A DNA stretch of 55,038 nt, filler included, from Haplodiscus bocki (lineage: Eukaryota), in the NCBI GenBank assembly GCA_965655095.1. It is 2 parts of 2 records of this genome, joined end to end, with 100 filler letters (N's around TTAATTAATTAA, not from the genome) between each part and the next. Parts side by side here need not be neighbours in the genome. Positions count along the whole stretch, not along the records: positions 27,903 to 55,038 come from OZ296651.1; 1 more part is not named here. One strand, given 5' to 3'. The position numbers were made by a program, and so were the translations under genes. Of this stretch, positions 20,594 through 55,038 are shown one piece after another; position 1 is the first letter of the stretch, and every line of letters begins with the position of its first letter. Under the pieces are notes generated by a model. That model was not told where the DNA came from. It did no database searches and worked only from the letters and a program-made list of their open reading frames with translations.

Positions 20594-20619
20594 TAGTTTA
20601 ATTAGCGGAAAATGTATCT

Positions 20620-23340: not shown

Positions 23341-23357
23341 AGCCAACCCCGAAGTCA

Positions 23358-25700: not shown

Positions 25701-25715
25701 TTTTGGAGACCTCAT

Positions 25716-27170
25716 TAATTTAGCGAGCAGATGTCCGACAGATCTTTGATCGAGTTGTCCATTGTAGCAAAACGGACTGCATTAGAGCTGGGCTGTTCGT
25801 TGGTTCGATTAAATTTTTGTCCATAGTGGAAAAAGTCACTAAGTCCCTCACCATTAGATTCTAGGAATACTGAGTTATCAGGTGTACTAAAGCATGAGGA
25901 CTGTCGGGTTCCTGGGTTTTGTTGGGGTCCCGTCTTGAACCAAAAGGAGAACGCGGAAAGGTTCCAATTATTTGCCTGGTTCTGATCATCGGAGTTCCGG
26001 TAGAAGCATTCCGGTGAAAAGTGTCGTCTTTTCTGTTGGTAAATTGAATCTGATATCCATCAGTTGGTCGTAAACGACCTGAATTGAACGAGTCTTTCAG
26101 GTGAAATTATCCCAAACATTTCGTGGGTAAGACTGTGTAGCTCCTTCTTAGGCTGATTAATGTGCGTGAGTTTTGTCCCTCCTAGTTTTTTTTCTGTTTC
26201 CAGTATTGTTATTTTTGAACTGTCCAGATCCAAGACTAGGTGCTTTGTTGTTTGTTATACTCATTTGTGAACATCACAGGTTTTTCAGCCATTGTTCCAT
26301 TCTGTACTCTCGTGACTTCTTCTTGTCCAAATTTTTTCTCATACCAGATTGGGTTGTGTTGAGTCCAGCAATACTTGCAAATACTTGTAGCGTTTTGTCG
26401 GCCCTTCTGATTAAGGTCGGGTTGTCGTGAGGCTTCCAGTTCGGTCACTCGGTGTTCCTGAAGTTGTGAACGAAGATTTTTCAATTCTTGACCTAATGAG
26501 GCCAATTCAACCTTAGTTTGACCTTCATCGTTGAGATAAATTGAAGAAACCTAACAATTCACATCTCTTTGAATGATTCATGTGGATATATTATCCCATT
26601 TTTTGTTAGATTTCTACTTCAATAAATTTTGAGCTTCCGGTTCTCGTTCTCTTGGTCGAGCTCCTCGTAGAGTGTAATAAAGATACCGTTGTCGTTCCTG
26701 CATTTCTGGGGCCTGTGTTGTTGCAGCTCTATCACCTTCAGCGATGCTTTCCATATTGTAGCCATCCCTTGTTAACAATCGTTTTTATTCGAAGTAGGAA
26801 ATTTTTCTGTCGCCTCGCACACAGTGTTACACCTCCCTTGTCAGTCGAAATTTGGTTCGCCAGTCAGAAACTTGGGTTATGAACTACTCTTCACGGGTGG
26901 CTGCAATTGTGGTAGTATTCTCAATATTGTTTTCATACCAATTTGCTGCAGGTGCCTGGAGTAGAGAGGAGAAGAATGCTTTTTGCGGAAAGTTTAGGTA
27001 GCCAAAACATCAGCATCTACTGGTGCGTCTGCGAAAGCAAAGTTCATCTATCCTTCAACAGGTGGAACAAAAGGTTCAGCATCCTGATCGAGATCACTGC
27101 CAAAGAACTTGTCTATGGTTAAATCGAGTTCAGCAAGATGAGCGTTAGCCACATTGTTAATCTAGTTTAC
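25716..27170 (-). pseudogene. gag: gag of element A
   Basis: IDKFFGSDLDQDAEPF...FSSLLQAPAANWYE (retrotransposon capsid-like); coiled coil MASLGQELKNLRSQLQEH; decayed zinc knuckle CKYCWTQHNPIWY (ORF 26236-26505); lies directly upstream of the protease. Confidence 0.75.
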
Positions 27171-27902: not shown

Positions 27903-28533
27903 TGATTGGCGCAGTTTAATACCAGGTATCAGTTGTACTCCTGTGATATTTTGTGACACACAGGCATTACCTTTCTCGGTTATGCGTAGTGTTGGTATTA
28001 GTTGTAGAATGTCTAGTTAGTTCGTCAGTGATGACTTTAGCATATTTTGTCGCTGAAAGACTTTTAGTACTTCATTTTTCAGACTTCATGACACTCATGA
28101 CAACTTTTTTTTTCATTTTTTTGGCAATAGTTTCAATGATATTTTTGTCGTGCTTCATGTATAGCTTTCCTTATATTTGAATTGTATGCCTTTTTTCCAT
28201 GCAAGGCTTAATTGTATTCCTGTGCAGTTTATAACTGAAAGGAAAATTGATTGTGAGAGGTCATGCTGGATGCATTTCAACACAATCCAGTTAGAATACT
28301 CTGACATATTTCATTGGGCATACCATTTCGAAGGTAGTTTTAACATTGGAGTTCAGATTTGATTTCACTTTCGACTCAACTTTGGTAATCAGGGCGAGGG
28401 TTTCACCAGCGTTTACGTTGTATGTTACGTTGTATGGTTTCTTCTTTATTAATGCCGTAGTCAGGTTTAAACAAATGACTCCAGCAGAACTAACAACTAC
28501 ATTATGTCACGCAGAACGGGTTAATTACGTGTA

Positions 28534-29149
28534 CCGTAGTGTCAGAAAAGAAAGGAACCTTTATTTGTGAATTAATACTGGAACGCTGCATATACTTGCG
28601 TAACACGCAAAAGCAACTGAAAATCACAAATTATGTTAGAAACAAAAGTTTCATGTAATTTTATCTAGTGTACAATGGTGTTTGTTTGAAACTTCTAGGA
28701 TCATTATTATAGAAGTTAGAGATTTTGCATGACTCCCTTTACAAAATATTAACATTGGGAATGACTACTTTTTCTCGAGAAATCTCTGCTCATTTTGATA
28801 GTGTAAACACTGGGGAGCTGCCAACTTCTTAGTGTAATCAGTGGATGAGGGCATCTTGACAGTATATGAAATGTAAACAAAAACGAAGTAGAAGTTACTT
28901 GAAACATCGAAAGTTGTGACGCAAAATCAACCTCCTATCTTAATACATAGAGGTGCAAAATCTCCTAACTTTTATAATATTGATCCTAGAAGTTTCAAAC
29001 AAACACCATTGTAAACTAAATAAATTTCTAAGAAACTTTTCTTTCGAACATAATTTGTGCTTTTCAGTTGTTTTTGAGTATTACGCAAGTATATGTAGCG
29101 TTCCATTACTATTTCACATACAAGATTCCTTTCTTTTCTGACACTACTG
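28534..29149. mobile_element. MITE / non-autonomous Tc1-mariner-superfamily element with ~196-bp TIRs and TA target duplication
   Basis: Left end TA|CCGTAGTGTCAGAAAAGAAAGGAA; right end TTCCTTTCTTTTCTGACACTACTG|TA. Arms 28534-28729 and 28954-29149 are imperfect inverted copies around a ~224-bp non-coding core. Confidence 0.9.
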
Positions 29150-29694
29150 TAATTTGCTCTATTGGTTAATGCATGGAACATCAGATGACTGCTGAAACGT
29201 GTAGCGTAAACTGATTCCTGCAGAATCTTCGTGAAACAAATTGGGAGTTGACAGGAAAACTAAATGGAAAAAAAGAATTAGCCATAAATTATTGAAGATT
29301 GAACCATTTAAATCTGGCTCAAACAAGAGACCTTACCGTAGTCTACTTTTCAAGCAAAATTCAGGAATTGCTCAAGTTTCTTCTCTTTGACAATTTTTTT
29401 CAAGTTCATACGCTTTATTGTTTGTAAATTGAGTTTGTGTGCATTCCGTCTTTTTGAAACCAGAACGTATAGGCATTCAGTATCTTCTTGATGAAACAGT
29501 TTATCAAAGTTGAGGTTCGACACACTAAGGTGTAGGAGTAAAGGTCAGTTCGACTATTCCTTCGAAAAGAAAATGCTTGGTTGTTTGATTGACTACTACG
29601 TCGAGCATCTAAAATATCATGAATAAAAGAATACATTACTTATCAACGAACCAACTGACCGCTATAATCGCTTTAGCTAGTTTCAACCCTAGTG

Positions 29695-29860: not shown

Positions 29861-32800
29861 TCATTGTTTTAGGATTCAATTTGATTTTTTCGAGTCCAGA
29901 ACATCGTTTCCTCAATCTAAACTTAGAGTGGAATCCTAAAAGCTTTTCTGAGGGATAACGTCAATAAAGAAAAACTCATATTAAATTTTAAGAAGAAAAC
30001 AAATATTTCTTTACAAATGTATTTAAATATTGAATAAAACACATCAATTTTAAAAAAAAAAACACTCCGAGTTAAATGCAAAAGAATCTCTATTTGACCG
30101 GTTCTAATGACTGGCATCCAACTTCCGGACACAAGCCTGACCAAGCCTACATGCAGCTGTCCAGGAGCTATATAAGTGCAAACGCCGATTCTGGCTCAAA
30201 TGGAATTCTCTTAAACATTGAAACAAGTTTATAAAAGTCTTTATCTTGAGAAGTTTTGGAGGAGCTTGAACGAAACAGGAGATGTTTTTTTTTCGGAAAA
30301 CGTAGTCAGGAAAAATTTTAAACTACTTCGATGGAGTCAGACTTTGAATTTTTTCTTGTTGAGGCCAGTTTTTTTGCGGTGACGTTTGCATTCGTTTCTT
30401 ACATTGGGATTTCTGTCGAGTTGATTACATCATTGGTTTTTCAAATTCGAGAAAGATTTTCAGTGATTTTGATGGGGCTACTCTGAAAACCATTGATGTA
30501 ATCAGTTTGACAAAAACGCAAACGTAGAAAACGGAGGCAAACGTCACCAGAAAAAAAAGCCTAAAGTTTGAAAAACAAAAAACTTAGAGCTCTGCAGGAG
30601 CAAAAACGATGTAATTTGAGAACTAAAAAGGTAAACAAACTATGCAAACATTGGGGGAAAAAGCAAAACTGTCAAATAAGTCAAAATGGCTGTTTTTGGT
30701 CTTTTTCACACTTCGCCAGACTCCCTATCGAGGTCGCAAAATGCAACCTCTGGAAAAATTAAGCAAAAAAAACTAAGTTGCCATTACACACTCTACCTAG
30801 CACTCAGAATGTGTGAAAAAACGTCCAAAAGTTTTACATCAAAATAAACACCCCCTAAATGAAAATTATTATTTTTTAGACCGGACTTCATTTTAGAACT
30901 TCTTCCATTTTTCTGTCGCTTCGCAAATCAAAACACAAATTCAGCTTCTAAATCAAACAGTCATTTTCAAGCAATTTACTTGCGCGAGCATCTTCGAACT
31001 ACCTTGTCCAACTTACTGACACAACTAATTCAAACAACTATTACAAAGGCGCAGTAACAATTCCCGAGCGTAGTGGGACCACGCATACCGACAAAGGAAC
31101 ATGTCAAAAACTTCAGACCTTCTCTCACTGGATCTTATTCTTTAGATCTTATTCCGTCTCCCATTTGTTGAGCCTCTTAAAAACAAATAAGCTCTAAAAC
31201 ATCAAGGTACCTGAGACAAAAATACATATTAGAAAATACAAATACAGAAAAGAAACACATAAATGCATAACTTATCAACTATCTTCTGAAAACTTTATCT
31301 GGCTAATAGTTAAATTTGGAGAAACCGAATCATGACTTATCGCAAAATTTTCAGTTATTTCGAGTTTTTGATAAGTCAGAAAGATCGCAAGAGTCGAGAA
31401 TTTAGTAAAAAGTGTTGTCATACTGCAGAAACGTTGACAGAATTTTGTCTTCAAGGCCAGAATTAGTACCATTTTTTTCGAAACATTCCCAACAATTGAG
31501 TTTTTTGTGAAAATTTTTCCATCTCAGAAATCGATCAAAACTTAGACTGCATTGGGCAATTTCCTCAAGAAAACTGTCCCAAAAGAACAATCGTTTACGT
31601 TATTTTTTGTGGAAAAATCAAAAAAGGCAGGAATATTTTCCGATCTGTTTTTTCGCACTGGTGCCGGAGTTTTTGTTGCTGCCAAAAGATTTTTTGCGTT
31701 CACAATTATTCTCGGTTTGACGAATTTGTTTCGGATTTTGCTCTGCAACGAAAATTGGTAATTGATGTAATAAATGCATGTAGTAGCATCAGAAAGTCCG
31801 GAAAATTCGCGAACGAACCTCCTTAAAATTTTGCAAAGAACAATCAAAACCCCCGACAAACTATGCAAATCACATTAAAGAAACCTATTAAAAATCAAGG
31901 CAACAGATCAACATTCGTCCTTGAAGAGTTTTGTGTTATTTTTCTAAACTCATGCAAAAAGCTCAAGGTATTTGGTAAAATCATCAACAACTTCAAATGC
32001 ATTAAAACTAGTTGAAGAAGTGATGGGTGTGCAGGGTTCTTAGGTACACTCTTTAGCAAATATATTTACTTTTGTTCGCTTTAGCTGAAATTGCTAAGTG
32101 GCATGTGCGGCCAAACGTCTAAGTTATCGTGAGAAAAATCTCTAAACTTTATACTGTTATTAGCTTTGTAAACTTGCCTTGCTAATCCGCGCTGACAAAG
32201 TTGCATAAGTTCTACTAGCAAGGTCTTGGTGAGAAAAGAAAGAGTAAAAAACGTAAGATGATATATTTGCTGGATAAACGGAAATGGTAGTCAATCTTAT
32301 AAAAACAAGTTTGCTTAAGACAAGATATAAATTCGGAAAGGTGAGATTACTAGGGTCAAAATTTGAGCGGTCCAAACTATTTCAATCCAGTAGCAAGTTT
32401 ATGACAACTTCCAACTTTAAAATTATTATTTCACTCTCTTCTCAACGATATATAAAATGGCAAAGGGAAACTCGCCACAATCTCCCGTGCTACAAGACCA
32501 GGTACCAAATCAAATGAGGATCGGGATTGAAATTCCTCTGGAACCCGATATGCTTGAGCCCGAGTTGACTCCTTCCCCGGTATCTGGGGAAGATGGGTCC
32601 GATAACTTTTCGGACTTTTTTACTGAGTGGACGTGGAGGCTCTGGAAGAGTGGGCTAATATAACCAACTTTATAATGGGCGGTCTTGGGTTCTCAGTTGA
32701 AGAACCAGAGATTACATAGAATTGCCGTGATTTCCTGATAGTTATGTATGGGAATATTTCGGAAAAGCGAATTCTCCGCTGCACCACAATGATAATAGAG

Positions 32801-33850
32801 CAGTTAAAAAATCTAATAACAGGCTTCTGCAAATTGACCAACTACCAAAAAACACAGATGGGGGGAACGTTTTGCCCGTTGGCTGCCTTCGACATTTCGA
32901 GTCCATTTTAAGGGACTGGGGAGTCCGGGGTTCCGGGAAATAAAGTAGGCCCTTGTGTCTACTTCGTAGGTGGTTTACGTAGCCCATATCACACTTGTAT
33001 TCTGTCTTACTGTTTGGTCCGCCATATAGCAAATTTAGGGAATTGCATGAAAAAACTCTCGTAATAGTTCAGAAATTAAAGAAGAAACTCATAAGGACTA
33101 CGTTCATTCTAAATTTATATCGTTTACGCAAGCAAACTTGGTCCTCAATTTTAATTTACAATTCTCTCCGAAAAACGGGAAAAACCTATTAAAAATAAGG
33201 ACTAAGTTGAGGTAAAAACTTATTGGCGTTTTGATTAGGACGAATGATATAATTCGTTTTTTTATTTTAGACTGTGCTTTTTAATTTTCGTGTAAGTTTT
33301 AAGATTACTTGTCTTTTTCAGTTCAATTTTATCTAAGACCCTGAGATCATGCCATAAAAGCAGTCGACCAAGTCAAGCTTCCTAGTCTCTCTTTGTGTAA
33401 AGCGTGAACCACTGACGAGGAACTAACATGCATTTTACTTTTTGGATTAAATATTTCTTTTACTCTTTCAATCAAAACCCGAGTAACCTGCCATAGCATA
33501 GCAACTGGGTGAAAAATTTTCGATTCCTCGTCTTCCCAACCGTGATTAAGACCTCCAGATTTTTTGGAGGGGTTGAAATAATTTAGGTTTCAACTACTAG
33601 TTAGGAATGGCTCACTGTAAACGGCACCTGGTGATTCTCTCTTGGTCCCTTTTTATCTCAAACGCGGCAGTTCCTTCGCGTTTTGTCGAGAAGGACTTCG
33701 TAGAAGAAAATGACTAGTGAGAATAACTCTCCTAGATCAGAGCAAAGATACAACTGGCGAATACTGAAGATGGGTGAGGATACTTGTAGGTTGGCTGCGG
33801 GGTGAAACTCCGTTGAGTTGTCCCGCCGGGTTGATGCTGATGATGAATAT

Positions 33851-34065
33851 TGGCAAAGACACAAATTGGAATTGTCGTAGAAGATTTTCGATAAGTTGCA
33901 ATATGGTCTTGGCTGAGACACAATTTCGAATTGTCTTAGAATTTTTTCGATAAGATGAAATTGAACTTCGGCTTTGACACAGTCTGGAAAACTCTTAGAA
34001 TAGTTTCGTTTAGATGCAACCGAAGTTCGGCTGAGACACAATCTGGAACTGTCTGAGAAATAATC
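33851..34065 (+). repeat. 59-bp tandem repeat, ~3.6 copies
   Basis: ggc(tga/aaa/ttt)gacaca starts at 33852, 33911, 33970 and 34029 (period exactly 59). Confidence 0.85.
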
Positions 34066-34486: not shown

Positions 34487-34867
34487 TTATTGGCAAAACT
34501 TCGAGCTGTTGGTTTGGTGAGTAATTTCCATTTCCTGTATTATCTTATCAGTTTCCGTTTTAATATTTTCCGTATCAAACTTGTGGAGCAACTTTTTTTC
34601 AATTGAGATGCCATAAAAGTTGAGTTGAATTTTTTTGGTATCATTCTGTGATAAATTTATCAATTGTTTTTCCTGTTTAGAATCCAAATTTTTCGGTCTA
34701 CCCGCACTTTTTCGATTTTTGAAATGTCCGTGGGAATTATATCTTCGAATAATATGCCAACAAGTGCTTGTTGGAACAGAGGTAGCCATCGAAATTGAAA
34801 ATAAACTATATCCTTTGTGGTAAAGTGAAACTACCTTTCGTTTAGTTTCAATACTGCAATTAGACAT
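34487..34867 (-). pseudogene. Tc1-family transposase N-terminal fragment (paired-like HTH)
   Basis: SIETKRKVVSLYHKGYSLFSISMATSVPTSTCWHIIRRYNSHGHFKNRKSAGRPKNL contains the HTH and GRPK linker typical of Tc1. Frameshifted downstream; DDE domain missing. Confidence 0.85.
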
Positions 34868-35169
34868 CCTCAAACTCTTTGCGCCAACTAATTTTATGAA
34901 TATTGTCAATTGTTTTCACCGAGAATTAAGTTTCTCAAATCTAATTTCTGTTAATTAGTATTTTATTTCCTCAGAAGTATACCGTCCGAAAAATTTCTCA
35001 CAGTAAGGAGTCCGATTCTGTAATCACACTAGTGTATCATCAGCAGTGTACATCCTTTTCTCATCAGCGTATTGTACTAGTTAACAATGGAAAGCAAGTC
35101 ATTCTTGTTACATGTAGTCGCAACAGGTTCCGTGTTTGTTGGTGATCTAGCAGCCAAAGAGAAACAGAG

Positions 35170-36179: not shown

Positions 36180-38967
36180 TCACCGTTACCACAATTATAC
36201 AAATCTGCGATTCTGTGTTGCAAAGTTCGCTATTGCTCGTCTTTCATCTCATTTACTTCATAATCGGTAGGGAAGACTCCCCAATTTCTCGAAGTATTAT
36301 TCAAACTAATGGCGCGGAAATCCAGCACATCATTGTTTGCAGCATACGTCCAGATGTTTTTTCCCTGTTTCTTGTATCTTTCTGCTGGGACCCTATATCA
36401 CGGATCTCAAAATTATTACGTTTTTGAGATGAAGAATATTTAAGGAATCATATATATGTAATTCAAATACAGTGCATATCTTGCAATTTTTAAATTTCCC
36501 TAAGACAAAAGATCTATATGGCAGCCGGAATGCTATGCAGACCAACTTTTTCTGAAAAACCAAAATCTGTTGAAGCATTGTTTTTCTCCCAAGGCCATAC
36601 AAAAATACGCCATACTGGACAATCGGGGACACATATGCCCTAATGTAAGCAAGTAAGTGAGATGTGTTCAATGTTTCCCTAAGTTTATAGACAATACCGC
36701 ATTGTTTCGAAAGCTTCTCGACAACTTTTCCATTATGTATATCAAAATCTAGCTTTTTAACGAAATAATTTCCCAAATACTTGTAACTGACGCAGGCAGC
36801 AATGGTTTGTTCATCAAGTTCAATACTTCCATTAACCTTTGCTCGCATCTCAAAAATTACAAATTTGGATTTCGTATAATTCAACTCGGTCCTATTTAGG
36901 GCTAACCAAGTTTGTAAATAAATCAGATCTCCAGTCTCCGAAGGCGAGTTTTCTATAAGAACTGTGTCATCCGCATATAGTAACAATTTACCTATGGTGT
37001 TTGCATTTGATCCAATGACGTTTATGTACACAAGAAGAAGAAGCGGTCCGAAAATTGACCCTTGAGGGCACCTCGTTTAACGATTTGAAGGTTGGAACTT
37101 TCAGAATTCACATTCACAAACTGTTTCCTCTCTGTTAAAAAGCTATTCATCAGTGCATAAACGTTTCCACGGACACCCAAGCTATGCAATTTTTTGAGTA
37201 AAATTTCATGATCTACAGTATCGAAAACTTTGCGAAATTCGAGAAAAACGCCCGTCGAGTTTGTTTTAGTGGCCCAATTTGATTGTATCGTTTTTCACAA
37301 CAACGTAGCAGCTAGAACAGTATCTTTATTTTTTCTAAATCCAAATTGATTTTCTGTCAGTAATGAAAACTTCTCAAGATATCTTATTAAGCGTTTCTGA
37401 ATAACTTTCGCGAAGTTTTCTGATAAATTTCCTAAGATCGAGTTAGGTCTACAATTGATGGGTGAAGCTTTTTTACCTTCTTTATGAATCGAAATGACTT
37501 TAGCTATTTTCATTATTCTCGGGAAAATGCCTTTAGAAATAAATTTGTTCGAACCGATACACAAATATTTGCAAAGAATTTCAGCTGAATGCTTCAAAAT
37601 TTTCACGTCAATATCATCGAAATTGATGGACTTTTTGGTTTTTAATTCTTTGAATATTGTACAAACTTCTTCATCAGTGACATACGAAAAGTACATTGAC
37701 TGGGTCTGTTGATTTTTGTCTGATGGAATGCAATAATCCAAAATCGGTGAAACTCTGGGCTCACAAGCATTCAAAAGATAATCATTGAAAGCATTTGCTG
37801 TCAAATCTCCATTTATTTTGGTATCAAAAACTTCTCCCTTCATTTTCCTGATATATTTGAAAAACACCTTGGGATTTTAATGATCAATTTTGTTTTATAC
37901 GTCTCCTCCTTTAGCCAATTTAATTTCTATATTGATTTCGTTTCTTTTGCCTTTGTAATTTAGATGTGCTTTTTCTGATTTTTAGTCAAGCCAGAGCTGG
38001 AAGAGTTTATCACGAATTTTTATGTGTCTTTTTATACGATTTGTTATCCACGTTTTCCGAGAGGAGAACTTTTTTGAGCTCTTGGCAAGGAAAATATTTA
38101 CCCGTTACTCTTTTTATGACTTCAACAACCTTAGTGATGTATGCTTCGCCAGACTGACCAGTCTCTACAATTTTTCCCAATGTGTGTGCAAAATAAAACG
38201 AAAATTTTTCGCTCTAATCTCTGTTCTCAAATTTTTTCAAGCATCGAAAACGGTATATACATTCCATAGCTTCGTATTCAAGATCCAATTTGAAATCAAA
38301 GCTGTAAAGATCATAAAATGATGTTTTTTCAATTGTATATTTTAGCAGTGGTACATTGCCAAAAATGGCATCTATATAAGAGCTAGAAGTTTTTGTTTCT
38401 CGGGTTGCTTCGCTCAAATTGATTAGGCTTAAACAATGTGCAGCCATTGTGTTTTCTAACTTCTTCCGTAAGACTAGCTCATCTAGCAAAAGATCAATGT
38501 TAAAGTCACCGGCTACCACTTGCGGTAAACCTCCATTTCTCTCTAATATTTCTTCAATGTGATTTAGATAGTTGTTTTTGTTTCGCGATGTTTGGCAGTA
38601 GAAGCAAGAAACCATGATTTTGCTTTTTTTTATTAGCTACTTTAACCGAGATGGACTCAAAGTCTTCATCTGTTCGTATTAATTCAGCTTGCAAGCACTC
38701 TGATGAATATATCGCTGCTCCACCACCTCGTTGTTCACTCCTAAAGCTTGTAAACGGTTTTTGATAACCTTCAAGGCAATGAAGATTAACATCGTCGTTG
38801 TTTTTAAACCAAGTCTCTGTCAAAGCTATGATCGACGGCTTTCTTTCCTTTATCCAAATTTCCAACTTTCCTAAGTTTGCACAAACCGATCTGATATTAT
38901 TATAGAACAAGGTTATTCCCTCTACACTACAATTAGTTTTTGAAAGTTTACCGTATGTGGATGCCAA
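36180..38967 (-). pseudogene. LINE ORF2 (APE endonuclease + reverse transcriptase)
   Basis: APE: FYNNIRSV, IIALTETW, RGGGAAIY, VAGDFNIDLL, TRETKTSSSYIDAIF. RT: KIAKVISIHKEG, RPNSILG, NQFGFRKNK, QGSIFGPLL, YADD (36966-36977), YKYLG. Confidence 0.92.
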
Positions 38968-38980
38968 TTGTGTTTTTTTG

Positions 38981-39660
38981 TTACACTGTGTGATATTGTT
39001 TGGTATCTACAACTTTTTGGGTACCCATTGGCAATCTGCTTTTCTCTCTTTGCACTGCAATAGCGATATTGTCATCGTTCGTTTTAGGACTGTTGACATT
39101 AATGATTTTCCGGATGCCATTATTTTCAATCAATAATTGAACTTGACAGTTCTGAGTTCGGGTTACCAGGTTTCTGTCATTTTTGTAGACTTGTAGCTCT
39201 TTATATTTCGGTGAAAGCCTTTCTTTGATAAACATCTGCCTGTTTTGTTAATGACTCCCCACAACATCTTTTTTCTGCTGTAAATTTCATTTTTTTCTTG
39301 AAATTAAACAACTTTTACTAAGATCGCTGGCGGCGTGTTCTTTTGACCTCTTCCCAGAACGTGACAAGCTTTAAAATTTTCAGGATTAGTAAGAAAATTC
39401 GTGTACTCACTCACCAAGCGAGTTATGAAAGTTGGCAAAAACTCCTTACCATCCCAGGGCAATTTTTCGAATATTAAGCAATCTTTAGAAGAATACCGTT
39501 CGTGGAGAGTAATTCGTTGTTCCAGGGCGCATAATTCGTTTTTCAGGGTAGTAATTTCCTGAGACTTCTTGTCGTTCTCCGATAAAGGAAACTCAATAAA
39601 TTTTTTTGTTGATGAACCTTTTACTTCAGATAATGCTTGTTCAATGTTGAAAGTCGCCAT
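38981..39660 (-). pseudogene. LINE ORF1 (coiled coil + RRM-like)
   Basis: Coiled coil LKNELCALEQRITLHERYSSKDCLIFEKLP, ACHVLG...PPAILVKV, then after a frameshift MFIKERLSP; directly upstream of ORF2. Confidence 0.75.
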
Positions 39661-39744
39661 TACGTAACAATTCTTTCACTGCACACTGTCAAAACGAACG
39701 TTCAAAAACAACCAACTGTTCACTAAGCTGTCATGTGTTTAATT

Positions 39745-43811: not shown

Positions 43812-44213
43812 TCAGTGTCGTGGCCATCTTCTGGGCCAAAGTTTTGCAGCATCTGGCTGTGGAAGAAACCCGCTTCAGGATGAGGATCATTCTCGGAGTC
43901 GTCCTCATTCGTTCCCTGGCTTGTACCCAATGCGTTCCGGGACGCCTCCGGAGTAATTCCGGAGTGGCCATGCAGTAGCGGGTTCATGAGAGTCGTCAAG
44001 ACGTGCTAATGCGCCTAGTATGCGGTTTTTCGTTCTACTGAACTCTAGTGATAACCTTTTAGTGACTCTTCCCTCAATTTCCTCAGAAACTTGAGTTATG
44101 TAGTCTTCCTGCGATCTGGGAACATTTGACTTTTGTGCCAAGTTGCTCCTAGTATGTTCCTCGCATTTTTCCCTATCTAATGCTGCCAATCTTCTCTTGT
44201 TTCGAGTTGCCAA
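43812..44213 (-). pseudogene. gag: 5' part of a probable Gypsy gag/ORF1, truncated
   Basis: MATRNKRRLAAL...YITQVSEEIEGRVTKRLSLEFSRTKNRILGALARLDD, frameshifting into MNPLLHGHSGITPE...GPEDGHDT; starts ~120 bp after the LTR. The gag identity is from position and recalled similarity, not a conserved capsid motif. Confidence 0.55.
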
Positions 44214-44332
44214 TTTCTATGGGAAAAGTAATGATCAGTCGTTAATACTTGATTATCGTTTGCAGGAGGAAAATCAATTTCGGTTTTTTAACAGTTTTGA
44301 ATAAGGCAACGAAGGGAATTAACAATACTGTG

Positions 44333-44517
44333 TGTTATCGTCAGTACTCCGAAGCAATAATAACACTTCTGTTTTGTACTTTCGTTTCTCCTTCTTGAAC
44401 CTTTACCTGGCGGGAAACATAATTGTTTGCACGGCAAGTCAAGGTACAAATAGGAAAAAGTACTTTATACATTATCACATCAAAGTCAAAAATGCCAACT
44501 CTGGCGGGAATTAAACA
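44333..44517 (-). repeat. Putative short LTR (185 bp) of element B
   Basis: Minus strand TGTTTAATTCCCG...GATAACA (TGTT/AACA termini), TATAAAG at ~44463-44469, purine tract directly upstream, gag-like ORF downstream. Confidence 0.55.
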
Positions 44518-44518
44518 A

Positions 44519-44541
44519 CTTTTCGTTCCTTCTCTTCCTTC
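44519..44541 (-). other. PPT of element B
   Basis: Minus strand GAAGGAAGAGAAGGAACGAAAAG, one base before the LTR TG. Confidence 0.6.
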
Positions 44542-45486
44542 ATAGGACGCGTCCTTTCCATCCTTCGACAGAAAATGGACGGACCTAATCCATCAGAGAT
44601 GGACATCAAAGTGCCTATTCCCGCGCCGACGTTTTATTTACAGTCTTGGTAACTGTATACTCCATAGATGGAAAATACTAGGAATTTCTTCAATTAGGAG
44701 AGTAAAAATTAAAATAATTAACACGGAAAAAAGAAGGAAATAAAATAAAATACAAAATACAAGACTTTAGAACAAAAACACATTTAATCATCTTCATGCC
44801 CATTTCATCACCAAAAAACTTTTTGACTTCTACTCTTCTAGAAAGGAAGAGAAACTGGTAGCACTACTAGTTTACTCCTCGTTCCGACAAGTAGCTACTA
44901 GTGGTATCCCGAACAGCTCCGTAGCCACTAGTAGTATTAGTTGAGTTTAAGTAAGCCGTACTCAAATGAGGAGTGAATACGGAGTCTTTCCGTATTCACC
45001 ATAGCACTGCAGCACAGCATAGTAGGAGTGGTTTTGTGACGTCACCAGACTAGTGACGACGGAACACGTACGGAACAAATATTCACTCCGAGAAGCAATT
45101 TTATTACAGACAAGTCACGCTACTTCTAGCATTACTTTATATTAAAGCACCGCTGTAAACTGCACTTATTGCAATCAATCAATGTAATTGTACCAAAAAA
45201 GATGGATTTATATTTATTAACTAAATAAAGAGATTAATTTTAAAACAGTACCTTTAGAGTTAAAAGGCTCTATGAATACTTGTATGTTCCGTAACGGTTC
45301 CGTCCTAGTCTGGATCAGTTCAAAAAAGTGTTCCGTATAAAATACATACCACTATATTTCCATACATTTGTTATGGATACGTATTAGATACGTATCCGTA
45401 TAAATGCACAATGATTAAAAATATTCAAGGGGTAATTAGTTAAGAATCTGCTTAGTAGTATTTTAGTTTGAGTTTCTCCCTGAGCA

Positions 45487-46173
45487 TTAGGGTGTCTTTC
45501 TGGTTGGTAGGGGCTGGCCGCATGCCTCGCATGTGAGCTGCGACACTCGCCCATTTTGAAGAAAAGACATCCCAATACTCAGTTTTCTCTTTTGTTGTGG
45601 TGGAGGCGGCGGTGTGCAGGACGGTGTGGATACAGACGATACTTATCCGGGTTCATTGAAGTCAAATGTTTCGTTAGGAGAAATATCCCAATAGACTCGT
45701 CTGGGGTCGTCGTCCGTTTAAAATGTGGCGTCGTCCGTTGTGGTGTGCGTTGTCTCCCAGCCTTCAATGGTACTCACATTCATTGGGGGCTTAGAAATTG
45801 GAGACGGGAAAGATGATTCCAGTGATTGGGGGCTGTATTCATCCGCTCGAATCACAGCCATATTAGCCTACACATGAAAAGGGTTGTGCTGCAAGTTGAG
45901 ATCATTGCGGCTGCGCGGCATAAATGGATTTTGATTACCGAACCCGTATGGAAATGTGGGTTCGTTAAAGTCCGAGTCTATAGTAACTATTTGTGGCTCC
46001 GGAGAGGCGACGGAGGAGACTGTGATTGTCTCCGTTGCCATAGCTCCTGATTGCTCCGTAGAGTTGAGGATTACCGGTGTATTATTCCTGATCGGGCTAC
46101 TTTCTTCTGATGAGCGCTCCACATAGAAAACGTCTGAAACTGTATATGAATCCAAAGAGAGATTTTGGTACAT
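45487..46173 (-). pseudogene. Accessory ORF in element sense: Ser/Thr/Pro/acidic-rich protein with QKRK and C-terminal CEACG
   Basis: One frame from ATG 46173 to TAA 45487-45489 (229 codons including the stop), with three internal stops and no frameshift. Confidence 0.55.
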
Positions 46174-46449
46174 GCCTATTGATACTTGGGAATGCGGAAG
46201 TTTTTAAAACAGTTGAAAGCTGCTAAGATCAACAAAGTGGCTTCAAGAAGTGATGATATAACTGAAAGTGAGTCGGCACACACCGTCAAGCAGGAGATGC
46301 TTTGAAGTTGCCGCGGTTGCAGTCGAAGTACTAAAGTCACTTACTTGGCGGTATAACTGAAGTTGATGAATGGTAAACAAATTAAATGTGAAATTAGGAA
46401 GGAGGAAACTTTGAGTTTCATTCCTCAATGTATCCTTGAAATATCATGC

Positions 46450-46457
46450 TGACGTCA
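46450..46457. promoter_or_regulatory. CRE palindrome TGACGTCA between the two divergent ATGs
   Basis: Perfect TGACGTCA in the 388-bp gap between ATG 46173(-) and ATG 46562(+); a second copy is at 45037-45044. Function is inferred only. Confidence 0.35.
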
Positions 46458-46561
46458 TTGCTGGCAGACAAATCGGTCAAACTGGAAATTAAATATTTCT
46501 GACATTTGATGAATAAAATTATAAATCCACCATGTAATTGTTGAAAGCCACGTCGTTCGTC

Positions 46562-49500
46562 ATGCCTGATGAAAAGAAAAAACGTCGTGTTGTTGTGGGA
46601 GGCGAGAGTAGTCGTCGTTCGGAGGGTTCCGGAGCAACCCCGGATGTTGGAGTGTCCGTTAACGATCAGTCCCCCCCCCCCCCCGATCGCCCCATTGTAC
46701 GTGAGGCTGTTGTCAGTGAAGAGGCGAGGAGGCCAGCGGAAGACAAGGGCAGAGAGGTTGATGGCGAGTCGGAGATCATCTCTGTGGGTGGACCTCTTGG
46801 AATTGCAGGTGGGTGCGAGTCCGAGGGATTGACGTTTGAGGAAGCAGTCGGGAGAGCTGGTCTCATTTCAGAGACAGAGAGTGCATTGTATACATCTGGA
46901 CTACCAATTTGTTAGTTTTCAAATTTCTCAATAACCATTAAACTTTCATTAGGATTCCACACTGGCCAGTTGTTCCATCCGTTAAGTTAAATTTCATGTG
47001 CTCACAAATCATCAGAAATTGACTTCGCCATCGGGTTGTGTTTTAGTGTAGGATTCTGCGGGAAAACCTGCCATAAAGTCGGTTCGTGGCAGTGTTTGTG
47101 AACAGTCTGCTTCCGGCAGCGAGTTCGAAATTGGAGGTGCAATTTCAGGAGAAAACTTTCCCTGGAGGGCTTCCCGGAGAGCTCCGTTGGCGGCTGTAGC
47201 TGAGAGTTAGTTTTGATCTCGCCTAATTATCGTGTTAGTGCTTCCAGCGTGTACCTATACTCGTGTTTTGTGTTGTAGGCGCTGAAGAAGAGACGGGAGG
47301 AGATGGGGCAGGAGAAGTGTCCACTGGCGTAGAGAGCGAGGGCGTGGTGCACAGGAGAAGGACTGTTATTACCAGAAGACTGATACCGCTCACCGGGGGC
47401 CCCAGCATTGTCTTCTTGCGGCCGACTAGAGCCAGAGTAGGAGTCGACAGCTGTTAGGGAAGGCGTTCGATGAGGTTATACTTTGTTCCAAATGAGTAAT
47501 ATTCTAGTATTACTCCTCGTTTGGTCCATGTTTGTGACTCATATTTTCCTGTTTTAGATCAGTACTCCGGAGATTCTTCGTCTTCCCTCATTCAGACCAC
47601 AGGACATCAGCTAGTGTCTCTTTGTCTCTCTTTGGTGGGGGAGGAGAAACATCAGCTCCTGGGTCCATTAATGACCAGTTAGTACTCCGGAACTGTTCCG
47701 TATAACTCCGTAATTCTTTGGTTTCACCATGTGTTTTTTGTTGCCGGAGCTTGATGAGGTGTTGGGCAAGCTCACCCAGGCGCCATCAGTGTCGCATCAG
47801 CAACAACATGTGCCTGACACAACGGACACCAGTGGAGAGGACACTGATGTTGATCAGCCTCGGAGACGGGTTCGCTCCAGGCGCACTTTCAAATTGAAGT
47901 AAAGGTACGCTGTTGGCGAGCTGGCTCAATTCTTCGTCACCGGGCCCAGTGATGCTGCAAACGAGGTGAGCGTGTTTTATTGCTGTGTGTCGGAAGGATG
48001 TGTCGGTTCTCACTCACGGAGGATACGAGATAATCCGGCATTTCCAGGGACACCACCATTTCGCTCGGAACCAACGGCCTCGCCTGGAGACACCTAGTTG
48101 GCGGGTGTTGGATTTCGAGGGCAACCCACTCCCCGAAGACGAACTTGAGAGACAGCGAGACAAATTTATGCTTGCCCCCCTTGTAGTCCGGGACCGAGAA
48201 TATCCCTTTCGGTAGACCTGATTCCGGATGCATCCGTAAACGTTGATCCACAGTTGCCAGTGCTGGCGAAATCTCCGGCCTCGTAGATGCACTTCAGTTG
48301 GGTGGGAGCTACGAGCTCGTGGTAAAACTGTGGGAGAGATTCGTGCTGACAACCAGTTGGATCAATGTGACTGTTGCTTGGTCTCGCGATGAGGCTCTGG
48401 TTAGTTCCGCATTGTCTCCGGATGCCAAATGCACTGATTAATTTAACTTTGGATTAACTTTTGTTTTCCTTTTTTAATCCAGTCTTCTGAACTGGATACT
48501 TCCGCGCATTTTGACACGTGTGGTTGACTGGATGAAGGCACACTGGCAGTTTGGTGAGGAATTTTCAACTCATGGCTCTGCAACGTGGGTCTACATCAGG
48601 ATGTGGAAGGCGGGTGATATTGTGCGGGTAGCTATGGCCATATTTGACCGATAATATGGTGATGCAAACAGCGAACTGGCAATTTTGGGGAAAATTCTGA
48701 GCGCAGTTGGCAGTGGGGCATCACTCGTTTCACATTCTGGTGGCTCTCGCACCCTGGTGGACTGCTACAGGGAGTCTCTTGGGAGTGGCTACACAAAGAC
48801 CCTTGTAGATAAAATCCGATTATTGATGTGCTGCTTCTGAAACGGTGCCTTCAGAAAAATGCAACAGTGGTTTCTGGGACATTAGACACTTTTTCATTGA
48901 CGGAGATCATTGTTACTCGATTGAAGGGGGCGGAACATCGAGACTAGATGCAATCGAGGCAGCTTCTTCGAATGGCCATAGAAACGGACGTTCTCTCTCT
49001 TCCCGGACTTCTGAAAGTTATCAGTAACATCATCGGTGTGTGGCCACTAATAGTGTCCTTTTTAAAAGAAGCTGGGAAGAAGGACAGCGGAGATAATCTT
49101 GTGGTATGGTTTTTTCTTTTATTTTCCTTTTCGTAAAAGGCCTATATTTATTAACGTTCTCTTCTTTAGAAGAAAAGGATAGATGGATACTTTTACATCG
49201 ATCAGCTGAGCAGAAGGAAGATCCGTCTGTTCCATCTTATCCTTGAAATGTGTTGGTATTCACGTGATATGTCACATTTGGGTAGTATTCCGCAATTACG
49301 CATGCATCTTTTGTGTGGAGATTCTAAGAGTCAACGTGTAGCTTTCCTAGTGCTATACTTTTTGCCAAATTGTTAGGGATTTCTAGGAGTCAACTTGTAG
49401 CGTTCCTAGTGGCACCCTCATTTGGAATTGGTTGGGGATTATTAGGAGTCAACCCTTAGCGTTACTAGTGGCATCCTCATTTCCAAATTCGGTACTCAGG

Positions 49501-50921
49501 GGTAATACTCTCTTTCAGACAGCGACAATTTTGTCGCACAGCGGTCTCCTGGAAATGGGTACGGATATCGGGCGTATGGCGAGCTGTCCTATTTCGTGTA
49601 CTGCATCTTGCAAAAGATCAAGAAGAGTGGATCGCTTCCCTTAGTAGAGAAATGTGAAAACTACGTGCTTCCAAAACATTCTTCGTTCGCCGCTATTGAG
49701 GAGGAGCACTTTCTGGTCGGAACTCGCGTTCATGCAGCCCTAGAGAAAATGTCAAGCTCCTACTTGAACAAAGAATTCTGGAGGCAATGCGCGTCGCTTC
49801 CCTGATGAGTTCTGCAGCACCATTTTGTCACCCGTAGCCGCCAGATCTACGCTGGGTCAAGGAGTTAGCTGTTTCTGCCCTGAAAAAGTTCTGGGAGGCG
49901 ATGAACAAGCCGCTTTTTTCTTGTACGGGCAGTTACTGGATGAACTTATTGAATGTGTTTGGGAGAGGGGGTCCAATGTTGAGGCTTGCAACGCCGATTT
50001 CTAGTCTTTTGTCTGGGAGCAGCGCCAACTGGAGCGTCATTCGACAAGGAGGCGCCCTGATGTACGGATGTTGAGCGCCTACTTCGCTCAACAGACCGGA
50101 TTTCAAAGTCGCAGGCACCTCTTCGGGGTAGGTTCAGTATTATTTTAGGATGCACTTCCTTGTAAGCAGTAATCAACATTATTTGTTGTAGGTGTTCCAA
50201 ATAACGACTCTGTTTCTTCGGGATTCAGTTGAAGAGTTGCCCGCATTCACTGTAAGTTTGGATGGAGTTGCCTTGAACCGCCGAGTTGTGGATAAATCGA
50301 TTGCTTGCATACATGGTTTTGTACGGTCACCCCACATTACCCAGCGCGATTTCTTCAGCGACAATGGGATCTACTTGTTTCTGCCGTCAATGCTGCTGGC
50401 TCGATGCGGGACCAATCGACTTGTGAGCGTTGGGCGAATGTGCTCCCTGAGGGCTATAAAGCCACTTTATTGGATTTCATGCTTTGGTCTTCAGGCGGAA
50501 AGAGGCACGGGATACATCCGAGAGATGGTTCGGAGTGCGCAGTGTGGAGTCATCTGATGTTGGGGAGCCATCTTGTTGGACTGGAGTGCGGTTATCAGAT
50601 GTTGTTGAGGTTGGGCAGGTTGAGTACCTGTCTGATTCTATGTTTGCTCGGGATCAGCCCTGTAGTAGTGGTACTACAATGTCACCTCGAAGCACTGGAA
50701 AAGGAAAGCGCAAGAGAAGTGCGACACCCGCTCTCGCTGTTACACCCAAGAGATTATTCGACTTTGACGACGAATCAATTATTTTTCCGAAAACGGGATG
50801 AGTGTAATTTGCAGGTCCAAACCTTGGAAGCGCTCTAAAAAGCCAAGAAAAAACTGCTGCGTCTCGTCGGAGTTGGCGCAGTTATCGTGCTGCACCAGTT
50901 GACCGGTCAAGTCCCCGTTAA
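46562..50921 (+). pseudogene. Multi-exon antisense gene inside Gypsy element B encoding a zinc-finger protein, possibly hAT-transposase-derived
   Basis: Approximate exons: 46562-46910, 47047-47205, 47279-47452, 47558-47677, ~47747-48399, ~48478-49103, 49519-50127, 50192-~50921. Donors GTTAGT/GTTAGG/GTATGG/GTAGGT; pyrimidine-rich AG acceptors at five introns. Finger CCVCRKDVSVLTHGGYEIIRHFQGHHH; basic tail KGKRKRS. Confidence 0.7.
49319..49492 (+). repeat. 59-bp tandem repeat x3 inside intron 6 of the antisense gene
   Basis: gagtcaac at 49328, 49387 and 49446, each followed by tagc(t/g)tt(c/a)ctagtg. Confidence 0.85.
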
Positions 50922-51362: not shown

Positions 51363-54300
51363 TTAATATCTGTAGTCGTCATTGCAATTCAATTTAAGAT
51401 TGTGGCGTGGATCAAACTTTCTGCTGCGGGGATTAACATCGGTAGGGCTCAGCGGCTCTGAACTTGCTTCCGCATCAGGCTCCATGTAGTGATCCTTATC
51501 GGTTCCGTCACTTGCTTGAACAATGTTGGGGAAAATCTCTGGGGTGTCCTCATGTATGAGTCCTGGAACGGTACACGTTTCGTCATATGGTGAGTCATGT
51601 CTCACTGTGATTGCGGGTGAGTTATCACTATCGGTCTGATGTTGGCCATTGTCAAGAATAGGCGCGTTTCAAAATCGGACTGCCATGCTCTGGCGTACAG
51701 ATCATCATGTTTTATAATGACTTCAGGGTCAGGTTGTCATTCTTGTGATTTTGATTGTACTTCAGGTATGGGTTGTCTGGGCGTGATTAGACGTACTCTC
51801 GTGCCTTGAAGGACTTGGGTTTTGTTCGTTCTGAGTTTTCGTACCAAATAATTGCTATTTGGTAAGGCTTTTTCAACAATGTAAAGGCCTATGCATCGGA
51901 ATTCTGTGAAGGGAATTTTACCACACTGGTGATCTGGTTTAGGCTGTAGAACATACACGTATTGTTGTTCTTTGAGGTTCGAGGCATTGGTTTTTTATCA
52001 TAATACGCTTTGTATTTGGAATAAGCTTGCATGGTCTGATTTCGGACATCATAGAAAATCATTTCCGTTTGTTTGAGAACATCTTCCGCAGTTTGTGAAT
52101 TTGGCGTGAGTATGCTTTGCGGACGGATGCCTATTTTTAAGTCTAGGACTTTATATGGAATACGTCCGTGAAATACTCTACTGGATTCACATCCAATGCT
52201 TGTGCGGTAGGAAGTGTTGTAATTCAAAACGGCAATGTTGACATACTTAGGCCAAATGGATCTTCGTTCACATGTTTCAATCTTCAGGGTGTTCTTGAGT
52301 GAGGCTTGCAATCGTTCAAGCATTCCAATTGTTTGCGCATGCTTTGTTGTGGCATTTTGTAGGGTGAATCCAAGAACTTCAACCACTTCTTTGATTACTT
52401 GGGACATGAGCACTGATCCCTTGTCAGAATTTATAGTCGTCGGCAAATAAGCATGTTTAGTCACGATATTGATTATGATGTTTGAGATCGTTTTCGCGTC
52501 TTGGCTGGAAGTGGGGTAGGCAGAAAAATATCTAGAAAACACGTCCATGGCTGTTACTATGATTTCACAGCCAGCAGACGGAGGAAATTCCGGAACCAAA
52601 TCTATTTGCACGGCGTCTTCGTGTGTCGCGATGTCTTCACTTGGATTCTGCAGGGCTAGCCGTGTGAGCCTATCATCAACTCGTGATTCTCCAATGCATT
52701 GCTCACATGACATGACCCTTTGTTTGATCAGTTTGGCCATGTTTAGAGAGTAATACTTTTGTCCGTATGCAATTATCGTTTCAGTAACTCCGGGGTGCTT
52801 GCCAAATTCTCCGTGCAGGCTCCAGAGTACTTCAACGACTAGTTGTTTTGGTATCAGCATTTGGTAGTTTTTGATGTTACCAGTCTCTCCGTGATATTTC
52901 AGGAATAACAGTCCATCTTTGTGGATGATACGGTCTTGATTCGCTTTGTACTGCTTAAATCGTTTGTCTGTTGTTAACAGCACTTCATCATATGGCTGGC
53001 CAAGAGTTTTGAGTTTCAAGTTTTTCAAGATTAGATCAAAACCTTGTTATACTGGTATCCGTGCATTTGCTTTGATTCCGTGTATGGAGCACGACGTAGT
53101 GTTTCCGTCAATCTTTGTAAATTCTTTCATAGTTGGCTTCATTAAAGAGGGTTCCTCGTGTGCTACCCATTCTGTTGCCTTTTTCCGAGACTGTTCTCTC
53201 CTTTCGAAGGTTTTTTCTTCAGCCTCATCTTCAGCAGCTGCTTGTTCGGAGAAGAACTGCTCCATATCTGCAACATCTGAGGAGGATGTTGTGACTTCAA
53301 TGGGCGTTGTCTGTACACCTTCCCTGATCTTGAGACGGATCTTCTCCGTGACTTTCGATTCTAGTCGCGAGAAAATTTCAACTGCTGTGTTTACTGAACC
53401 AGCAATATGTGCCATTTTATAGTTGAACTGCAGCAGATAATCACCTGCGTTCCACAAAGATGGTGGAACAGCTTTTGTCTGGAAGAATCGTGTGACCGAT
53501 TTGTTGTCCGTCAGAACAATTGTTGGTTTTGTTGCTTCCCACAAAATGTGGGCGAACTCGAGAGATGCTATGTACATTGCCAAGAAATCTTTCGAGTAAA
53601 TCGGAACCTTCAGTTGTGCGGGGGAGGAAGTTCTTGATCAAAATGAGACAGGCGCAAAAGCCTTTCTCTTTGATTGGATCTTCTTGTCTGAGTTGTCTTC
53701 AATCATGAGGGCATAACCTGCGCTTCAGAAGCTTGCGTCCGTCATTAGGACAAGCTGCTTTCCAGGAATGGGTTGTTTCAATGCTAATTCACAAGCATCA
53801 CTCAGTGCTTTATTTACTGAATCAAAGGTTTCTTTCAACTCTGAGGTGATGTTAATTGGGACTTCTGATTTTGAGAGTTTATAGAAGCTGTTGAGTTTTT
53901 CAGCCATCCTGGGAATGTAATCTCTGTAACATTTCACGAACCCCAGATGTCGCTGAAAAACCTTCTTCGACTTAAAGAATCTCAATTTATCAAAAAAAAA
54001 TTCGAATCTGGTTACTTTATGGTGATACTGCCTCAGATGAACAGGTTCGTCCAAGAAATTCAACTTGCCTGACTCGAAAGTGGTACTTTTTGAATCTCAG
54101 TTTCAATCCTGCATTGCGAATGCACTGGAAGACTGCCCGAATATTCCGCGTAGGATCCGTAGCATTATTGGCTGCTGTTCCAATATCATCGACGTATTGG
54201 GCACATTGGTCAGCCTTGACAACTGGGTCCAAGTACTCGCGCGTGAAGCTTGAAAAGGCAGACACAGATCTGCTAAGGACTTCTGCAAGTCTCCTGTAGG

Positions 54301-55038
54301 CAAGGGTTCTGCTGGCAAGATTAAAGCAAGTATCTCCACAGACCGTTGGTCCGCCATCTGCAAACAATGGTAAGCCTGAGAGCAGTCAAGTTTGCAGAAA
54401 AGACATTTCCCTGCCCAGTGTTTTGCTGCGTCTGACAAAGTGCTGACGGAGTGATTATTGTTAATATAAGCATCTGCAATCAGGGTGTTGATTTTTCCTA
54501 GATCCACCAGGAGACGCAATTTCCCGTTGGGTTTTCGCTGCGCAAAAATGGGATTTGAGTATTTTGAGAAGGGTAGGACTGTGATAATCCCGTTTTTGTG
54601 CACTAGGGCAAGTTCAACAATTAGGTGTTTTTTCAGGTGGATCGGCATCGGTAGGCTTTGGCTGTAAACAGCTTTGTCATCTTTCCGTGTGAGTCTCACT
54701 TTAAATTCTGTGTTCATTCCAATGTCCATTCTGTGTCTGGCAAATGTATCATGGTACTCGACCAGGATATTTTCGATTGCATGTTTTTCGGTTTCCGTTA
54801 GCAGCGTATCTGTCCAGTCAAATCGCTTTAGAAATTTCATTCGTGATTCTACGTCATCACTTGGATTCAGTTTTCCTTTTCTTGTAGTCCACGCAGTTCT
54901 TTAAGGATTCGTATCTGTATCGGAGTGTGATCCTCGGTTTTGCCAGGATTTTTGGGTGTTGGAAACCAGAAGGTATTACTCTGTTGTTCCGGTTTATTTG
55001 TTCTGAGTAATTCACTCAGATAAGTAGTCAGATCCTGA
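51363..55038 (-). pseudogene. pol: pol of element B (RT, RNase H, integrase, GPY/F region), frameshifted
   Basis: RT: PIFAQRKPNGKLRLLVD, KLDCSQAYH, YVDD (54185-54196), VEFLG. RNase H: LMTDAS, VLTDNKS, NTAVEIFSR. Integrase: HGEFGKH...CEQC, QIDLV, SDKGS, GMLER. GPY/F-like IGLYIVEK. Confidence 0.95.

Follow-up and report, generated by a model that had tools for sequence, protein, structure and literature searches.

In Haplodiscus bocki, a Ty3/Gypsy LTR retrotransposon carries in its 3' part two conserved protein-coding genes that face each other across 388 bp of conserved non-coding DNA, and comparison of family members suggests that this gap is probably an internal promoter of the antisense gene. 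The chances that it also fires toward the sense gene, ORF-X, appear to be about even. The full model that we currently prefer, namely a two-way internal promoter combined with the joining of a trans-spliced leader to the ORF-X mRNA, would have a probability of roughly 0.47 and ranks ahead of an ORF-X mRNA derived from the LTR transcript. The stretch of DNA analyzed, hereinafter the window, comprises 55,038 nucleotides; the features discussed below are collected in Table 1.

Two facing genes in a Ty3/Gypsy element

The element is a full-length, decayed Ty3/Gypsy copy on the minus strand, and the module studied here is its 3' part. The two LTRs, both bounded by TG...CA, are 92% alike (K2P 0.064; the 5' LTR is located in the adjoining genome stretch), and the 5-bp TSD CTGAG flanks the element on both sides. 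In the pol region, Pfam searches identified RT_RNaseH, rve and Integrase_H2C2 along with a weak match to RVT_1, in the order RT-RNase H-integrase of Ty3/Gypsy elements, and a PBS-like TGG motif is present downstream of the 5' LTR in 9 of 14 copies. The family is abundant: a first look yielded 8499 ORF-X candidates, 150 of which were scored, and ORF-X-related proteins accounted for 1228 of 1311 candidates, the 120 listed all being without a name. Trees of the region define the lineages A (that of the present copy), C, B, D and E. Locus L066 (chimeric), locus L082 (disrupted gap) and duplicate loci were dropped before counting; L152 and L154, with a misplaced 5' end, were also left out, as were 5 of 19 stretches lacking the 5' LTR block. 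In L197, a leader found upstream of the family LTR is explained by a solo LTR inserted into another element.

Table 1. Features of the retrotransposon and its 3' module (positions in the window)
Feature	Position	Strand	Remarks
3' LTR	43816..45545	-	1730 bp, TG...CA; holds gag start; LTR pair K2P 0.064
LTR promoter-like block, conserved	44376..44630	-	E2F-like, TCF-like and Fox-like words; TATA near 44399
CRE in the LTR	45037..45044	.	within conserved LTR block (45036-45087)
ORF-X, sense accessory gene	45487..46173	-	228 codons; broken here by stops at 45868, 45718 and 45643
Polypurine-tract-like run	45546..45560	-	abuts 3' LTR; overlapped by ORF-X
Splice-acceptor-like site	46223..46253	-	conserved YAG (46223-46225), TCAC 27 nt upstream; likely trans-splice acceptor, or initiator
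Inverted E2F-like pair around TCF-like word	46290..46314	+	altered in this copy
Fox-like word GTAAACAA	46373..46380	+	
Conserved block TCCTCAATG...CCTTGAAA	46422..46441	.	factor unassigned
Conserved block with CRE	46447..46472	.	CRE TGACGTCA at 46450-46457
TATA-like/AAATCCACC block and GCCACGT	46520..46553	+	likely antisense core promoter
Antisense gene, exon 1	46562..46910	+	donor GT at 46911
Antisense gene, remaining exons	46911..50919	+	multi-exon; exon limits approximate
Decayed pol	51363..55038	-	RT, RNase H, integrase, Ty3/Gypsy order

The first-pass annotation of this DNA had described ORF-X as a 228-codon frame with three stops and no frameshift, rich in S/T/P/D and containing PPPPP-QQKRK and a terminal CEACG. 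All of this is borne out by the sequence: the frame is closed by a terminal stop, S+T+P+D make up 40% of the residues, and both motifs are present, CEACG lying 11 residues before the end. What had been missed is that ORF-X runs over the polypurine tract, such that its last ~20 codons, the CxxC included, are encoded in the 3' LTR. None of the three internal stops recurs in any of 29 other copies, and the frame as a whole is conserved in the family, with no stop common to at least 40% of 29 copies over 238 codons and a mean of 1.4 stops per copy, compared with 5.2-16.4 in the other five frames. The net dN/dS is 0.06 for lineage A vs B as well as for A vs C (for A vs B, 14 and 12 copies, with a bootstrap range of 0.04-0.10 from 8 and 8 copies; only pairwise comparisons of real copies were employed), whereas four control frames yield 1.4-4.7. 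One opposite-strand frame also shows a low ratio, 0.11, because its third positions are common with ORF-X, yet it contains 5.2 stops per copy. The raw pairwise omega is 0.35 for ORF-X vs 0.28 for integrase (20 copies). Judged by these substitution patterns, ORF-X is a real gene under purifying selection; the three stops in this copy and the lack of a known family might have pointed to a chance open frame in decayed DNA, a reading that the selection tests already refute and that retains virtually no probability.

By its anatomy, the antisense gene is likewise real and spliced. Lineages A, B, D and E have all retained the exon 1 donor despite a differing N-terminus, and farther downstream the gene contains short introns with T-rich acceptors. 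Omega values of 0.21-0.63 in six of seven segments indicate purifying selection on this gene; the candidate second exon, at 0.69, fares no better than a shifted frame.

The head-to-head arrangement reported previously, with 388 bp from ATG to ATG (46562 and 46173), was recovered and is kept in all five lineages. ORF-X is present in each of 14 long loci, an antisense homolog facing it in 12 of them, and in 29 of 29 further loci found with the lineage-E gap. Two head-to-head genes less than 1 kb apart with a conserved non-coding gap between them represent the typical layout of a bidirectional promoter, and the location of the conserved antisense ORF between pol and the 3' LTR is that of an aORF-3R of the Grande/Retand type.

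The conserved gap and the antisense start

The net divergence of the gap between lineages A and B is 0.22, about five times less than the net dS of ORF-X (1.07); this low divergence is not peculiar to the gap because the non-coding part of the LTR is about equally conserved (0.20). Identity between lineages is 0.32-0.34 before position 46220, 0.38-0.85 over 46220-46559 and 0.26-0.32 past 46560, that is, conservation drops next to both start codons. A hidden coding frame is ruled out by stops and by lineage-wide frame-breaking indels (12 of the 14 shared indels). No consensus RNA structure was detected in the gap (alifold energy of 0 for either strand; z of single sequences between -2.4 and +0.6), and an Rfam search produced one chance match only (E 0.76).

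The CRE previously noticed in the gap, TGACGTCA, is found there and is conserved in 33 of 44, 16 of 18 and 4 of 7 copies, as well as in 20 of 27 copies of a further set. It is this conservation that gives the CRE its weight, and not its count, which is within chance expectation (2 in the window, the other being the CRE of the 3' LTR, vs 0.68 expected, with 17 of 100 shuffles reaching 2). Ranking 6th among the 381 8-mers of the gap, the CRE is not the key element but belongs to a set of about six conserved blocks; a role as branch point for an intron in the antisense 5' UTR was rejected, the acceptor score being about 0. The most conserved 20-nt segment of the gap is the TATA-like/AAATCCACC block, although the exact TATAAAT is found in only 9 of 27 lineage-E copies.

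Four conserved 7-mers of the gap, representing three motifs (the CRE twice, the E2F-like word and the Fox-like word), recur in the LTR, compared with 0.22 expected (0 of 2000 shuffles). The names E2F, TCF and Fox, for motifs of the gap and the LTR alike, are assignments that we assume; an E2F consensus, and conserved E2F sites in the LTRs of Cer1, are given in PMC3315495. The TCF-like word, the Fox-like word and TATAAATCCA are directed toward the antisense gene in the gap and toward gag in the LTR. The antisense strand further contains eight conserved upstream ATGs, which favours a transcription start close to the ATG of the antisense gene; given that trans-splicing is available in this host (see below), these ATGs no longer force the start into the gap. 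Taken together, the words shared with the LTR, the direction of the motifs and the upstream ATGs point to a likely antisense start near 46550, so that transcription would probably begin past the TATA-like block and yield a short leader. A Kozak ATG-TAA at 46532, a possible start-stop element, is located upstream of this position.

Very improbable, in our assessment, is the reading under which the gap has no promoter activity, transcription of both genes begins in the LTRs (that of the antisense gene in an HBZ-like manner, in the 3' LTR) and the gap consists of splice signals or an RNA element. Such an arrangement would accommodate the YAG past the CCACCATG block (38 of 48 copies) and the AG before CCACG, and would have a counterpart in the HTLV antisense promoter, which sits in the 3' LTR (PMC7264820). 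However, in most lineages the score of these antisense acceptors is about 0, a conserved RNA structure is absent and 330 nt of conserved LTR-type words would be left unexplained.

The proposal of the first-pass annotation, an LTR-independent internal promoter driving two regulatory proteins, thus gains from the conservation of both genes, the constraint on the non-coding gap and the words shared with the LTR, but its two-way part is weakened by the asymmetric motifs, which face the antisense gene only. Given that these motifs all point one way, the gap could be a one-way promoter.

The 5' end of the ORF-X mRNA

On the side of ORF-X, conservation of the gap ends at a sense-strand YAG, which is present in 42 of 48 copies. 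In a rough splice model of the host, built from 13 acceptors and 15 donors hand-picked from chaperonin genes, this YAG scores 8.5 in lineage E, ~5 in B and C and 3.2 in D, compared with -0.6 to 10.3 for the host sites; it is the top-ranked AG in 11 of 15 lineage-E copies and is weak in lineage A, to which the present copy belongs (mean score 1.2, rank mostly 4-6 of 12-18). No conserved splice donor was found in the gap in the five lineages, and GT on the sense strand of the gap falls below shuffled counts in all five. An unpaired acceptor following a donor-poor stretch is the usual layout of an outron.

The spliced leader reported for an acoel in which 30.2% of genes are trans-spliced (PMC9911081) has 2068 matches in the host genome vs 2 for a control. 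These matches include 8 tandem copies, each followed by GT, which are SL RNA genes of the host. In all four chaperonin genes with a locatable start, an acceptor-like AG precedes the ATG by 2-40 nt, and some of these genes have a possible cis donor. The combination of a conserved acceptor-like site, no conserved donor and a spliced leader in the host makes trans-splicing the simplest reading, and the ORF-X mRNA is likely to be completed in this manner. As a cis donor out-competes the spliced leader, at least in the system covered by PMC4558846, a short gap transcript is favoured over the long genomic RNA as the substrate. The divergent transcript would then have an even chance of beginning inside the gap; its donor-poor 5' part would be the outron, the leader would be joined at 46223 and the mRNA would terminate in the 3' LTR.

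The same acceptor-like site is also compatible with a one-way promoter, under which the gap drives the antisense gene alone, as in the case of gene23 of Grande, and the ORF-X mRNA comes from the LTR transcript, either through cis-splicing of the env-like kind or through trans-splicing of the leader onto the genomic RNA at 46223. Apart from the polarity of the motifs, this scenario draws on the sole donor-like site past the LTR TATA, which lies in gag codons and, being kept in lineages A-D, leaves LTR-driven splicing open, and on precedents: env of Tor3a is spliced from the LTR, as reported in PMC4402516, and the subgenomic mRNA of Cer1 is both cis- and SL1-spliced, as reported in PMC3315495. 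Nevertheless, the five lineages have no conserved donor in common within 1.9 kb past the LTR TATA, the best two GT sites are located at or just after this TATA, upstream of the inferred start, and the GT of the gag site may merely reflect Lys-Leu codons. Depletion of GT on the gap's sense strand is consistent with an outron. We consider the one-way promoter a possible but less probable solution than two-way firing with trans-splicing. An intron in the gag leader was rejected since the AG before the gag ATG is not kept in every lineage.

A third interpretation of this boundary, a bidirectional promoter without splicing, takes it for a core promoter with an initiator at 46224 or 46251 and possibly a downstream element. 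The Inr/DPE consensus provides the reference for this reading. The TCAC-to-YAG spacing of 27 nt, which holds in 67 of 70 copies and is restored by a compensated indel in one sub-lineage, speaks for a core promoter, 10 of 15 copies of lineage E and 2 of 5 of lineage D have TCAKTY at the A in question, and the leader past this A is mostly ATG-free. In lineages A, B and C, however, TCAKTY is present in 0 of 28 copies and YAG in 28 of 28, and the YAG alone is invariant, as it would be in an acceptor, which renders the interpretation improbable.

Searches for genomic traces of spliced transcripts returned the following. For the LTR-to-ORF-X junction, there was a single match, the same as for the control and unrelated to the element. 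Retrocopies lacking antisense intron 1 or the gag-leader intron numbered 0 in each case, with none for the positive-control intron either. The leader joined to the ORF-X or antisense leaders gave 8 genomic matches, all of them SL genes; among 54 further leader-join matches, none of the 30 that were aligned fits, and 24 were judged by the matched text alone. No intron skip was seen in the 15 joints listed of ~2800, which derive from contigs of four runs that are DNA-like and have no bearing on expression.

The two proteins and comparison with known systems

In addition to its S/T/P/D-rich composition, the ORF-X protein has a basic NLS-like run and a C-terminal CxxC. Among the 120 natural homologs listed, three SIM-like motifs, a label that we presume to be appropriate, occur in 93-94 and the CxxC in 114. 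AlphaFold predicts no fold apart from the CxxC end, and the models are poor for ORF-X and the antisense protein alike (pLDDT of 47 and 40, respectively). ORF-X has no match in Pfam, PDB or Atlas; inspection by eye revealed no hydrophobic stretch and Pfam no match of the kind expected of an env-class membrane glycoprotein (errantivirus/Tor). The antisense protein carries a CxxC...H...H finger, for which Atlas gave only leads below 0.9, to zf-C2H2_12, zf-BED and FAM200 clusters; PDB and Pfam searches returned nothing significant, and the segments scanned have no Pfam match to Transposase_28 (PF04195). The function of neither protein is fixed by a family, solved-structure or Atlas match. Tentatively, both products may be nuclear, with ORF-X acting as a disordered SUMO- or cofactor-binding adaptor, the antisense protein binding DNA via its zinc finger and the two together tuning or protecting expression of the element, while the E2F/TCF/Fox/CRE-type sites common with the LTR would tie both genes to the cell state of the LTR.

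Most extra ORFs found in LTR retrotransposons have no known function, and plants are the source of those antisense ones that have been studied best; in the present animal family, which is abundant, clear selection acts on both genes and on the presumed regulatory DNA between them. In the literature covered, which takes in few subscription journals and not Repbase, neither a head-to-head pair of accessory genes in an LTR retrotransposon nor this family is described. The module could be a self-contained two-gene cassette in which an internal copy of the factor vocabulary of the LTR fires both ways, the antisense gene encodes an intron-containing zinc-finger protein, possibly hAT-transposase-derived, ORF-X encodes a trans-spliced SUMO-binding adaptor with an LTR-encoded tail, and the whole is a control circuit resembling those of complex retroviruses that arose independently in an animal Ty3/Gypsy retrotransposon; as a joint proposition, this is speculative and rather unlikely to hold in full. 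The analysis makes predictions at the level of single bases, an antisense start near 46550 and a leader joined at 46223, and, if correct, would imply that retrotransposons evolve retrovirus-like accessory control by means of a divergent promoter and host trans-splicing.

The foamy-virus internal promoter for accessory genes, to which the first-pass annotation loosely likened this arrangement, is indeed a loose comparison. The foamy-virus promoter is activated by its own Tas, and the tas and bet genes are same-sense, unlike the genes described here, which lie on opposite strands. In the account of PMC13220597, tas/bet are expressed from an internal promoter, and accessory regulatory genes near the 3' end are the shared trait; foamy virus is a retrovirus, and both products are spliced from one pre-mRNA. 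No sequence link between foamy virus and the module was found.

Grande gene23 and Tor Penv are closer. According to PMC7264820, gene23 of the maize element Grande is antisense, conserved and nuclear and has an upstream promoter of its own, and antisense aORFs are reported for the plant Ty3/Gypsy elements Retand and RIRE2 (PMC7264820, PMC11963269). As far as these sources describe them, all three share with our element a conserved antisense ORF between pol and the 3' LTR. In contrast, the present host is an animal, the antisense gene is a multi-exon zinc-finger gene lacking a Transposase_28 match in the segments scanned, and opposite it, on the other side of the gap, stands a second gene in sense orientation. 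Oikopleura Tor3b and Tor4b contain an LTR-independent internal promoter, Penv, which in Tor4b is intergenic and follows pol (PMC4402516, in the part on which we draw). Here too a 3' sense gene in an animal element of the Ty3/Gypsy type is served by an internal promoter, which in our case is predicted; Penv, however, drives env, a membrane protein, and that part of the paper contains no evidence of splicing and does not mention bidirectionality.

Vertebrate retroviruses offer more distant parallels. HBZ of HTLV-1 is an antisense regulatory gene, and HIV nef and MMTV sag are sense accessory ORFs reaching into U3, traits that have counterparts in our element, where the regulatory role of the antisense gene is predicted; these viruses show no homology to the module, and HBZ is driven from a promoter in the 3' LTR (PMC7264820). 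Finally, Cer1 of C. elegans is a Gypsy element with E2F sites in its LTR and a leader on a subgenomic mRNA, the latter being predicted in our case; as described in the part of PMC3315495 cited above, its SL1 site marks the 5' terminus of a spliced mRNA that derives from the LTR and is not part of an internal head-to-head module.

Spliced leader copies in the host genome

Matches to the acoel spliced leader number approximately 2000 and are dispersed genome-wide. Among the first 20 copies inspected, the 5' ends joined to the leader are varied (loci L194-L213 and L223-L252), and several ends are recurrent and open ORFs, a LINE PHD-ORF1-like frame followed by an endonuclease, as judged by eye. 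Given these recurrent leader-joined ends that open LINE-like ORFs, LINE RNAs in Haplodiscus bocki seem to acquire the leader by trans-splicing. The last three bases of the leader are TAG, and it could restore a splice acceptor after each insertion. The tandem copies in which the leader is followed by GT, all located on one host sequence (C7), likely represent the SL RNA gene array.

Features of the window and the host genome (coordinates are those of the window unless a host sequence is named)
Feature	Position	Strand	Remarks
Tandem array	1-11400		diverged; unit ~720 bp
Second decayed LTR element	19500-26550	-	distinct from the Ty3/Gypsy element; by eye
MITE-like inverted repeats and 59-bp tandem repeats	28532-29151, 30369-30557, 33850-34059, 49322-49482
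Tc1-like transposase N-terminus	34490-34915	-	by eye
Decayed LINE	36396-39675	-	by eye
First ~130 gag codons	43816-44215	-	inside LTR; also in copy L031
Kozak-context ATG, TAA immediately after	46527-46537	+	most conserved block of the gap
Leader+GT tandem copies	G000:C7:57909072-57988731		n=8 (L214-L221); spacing ~9.5 kb

LTR and spacer of the Ty3/Gypsy element

A PBS-like motif is located within the gag frame and is duplicated in some copies, and no conserved poly(A) signal is evident downstream of the inferred LTR start. Near 45205, the LTR contains a conserved TATAAATCCA word that resembles the start-stop word of the spacer between ORF-X and the antisense gene.

Surrounding repeats and divergent copies

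The ~720-bp-unit array is found in L031 as well, beyond the 5' LTR. The second LTR element contains gag/pol-like and possibly env-like fragments (by eye), and one of the MITE-like/59-bp repeats sits within the antisense gene. Seven copies of the Ty3/Gypsy element (L035, L037, L038, L039, L045, L047 and L048) are ~77% alike with divergent middles, which suggests recombination between element lineages within the antisense gene.
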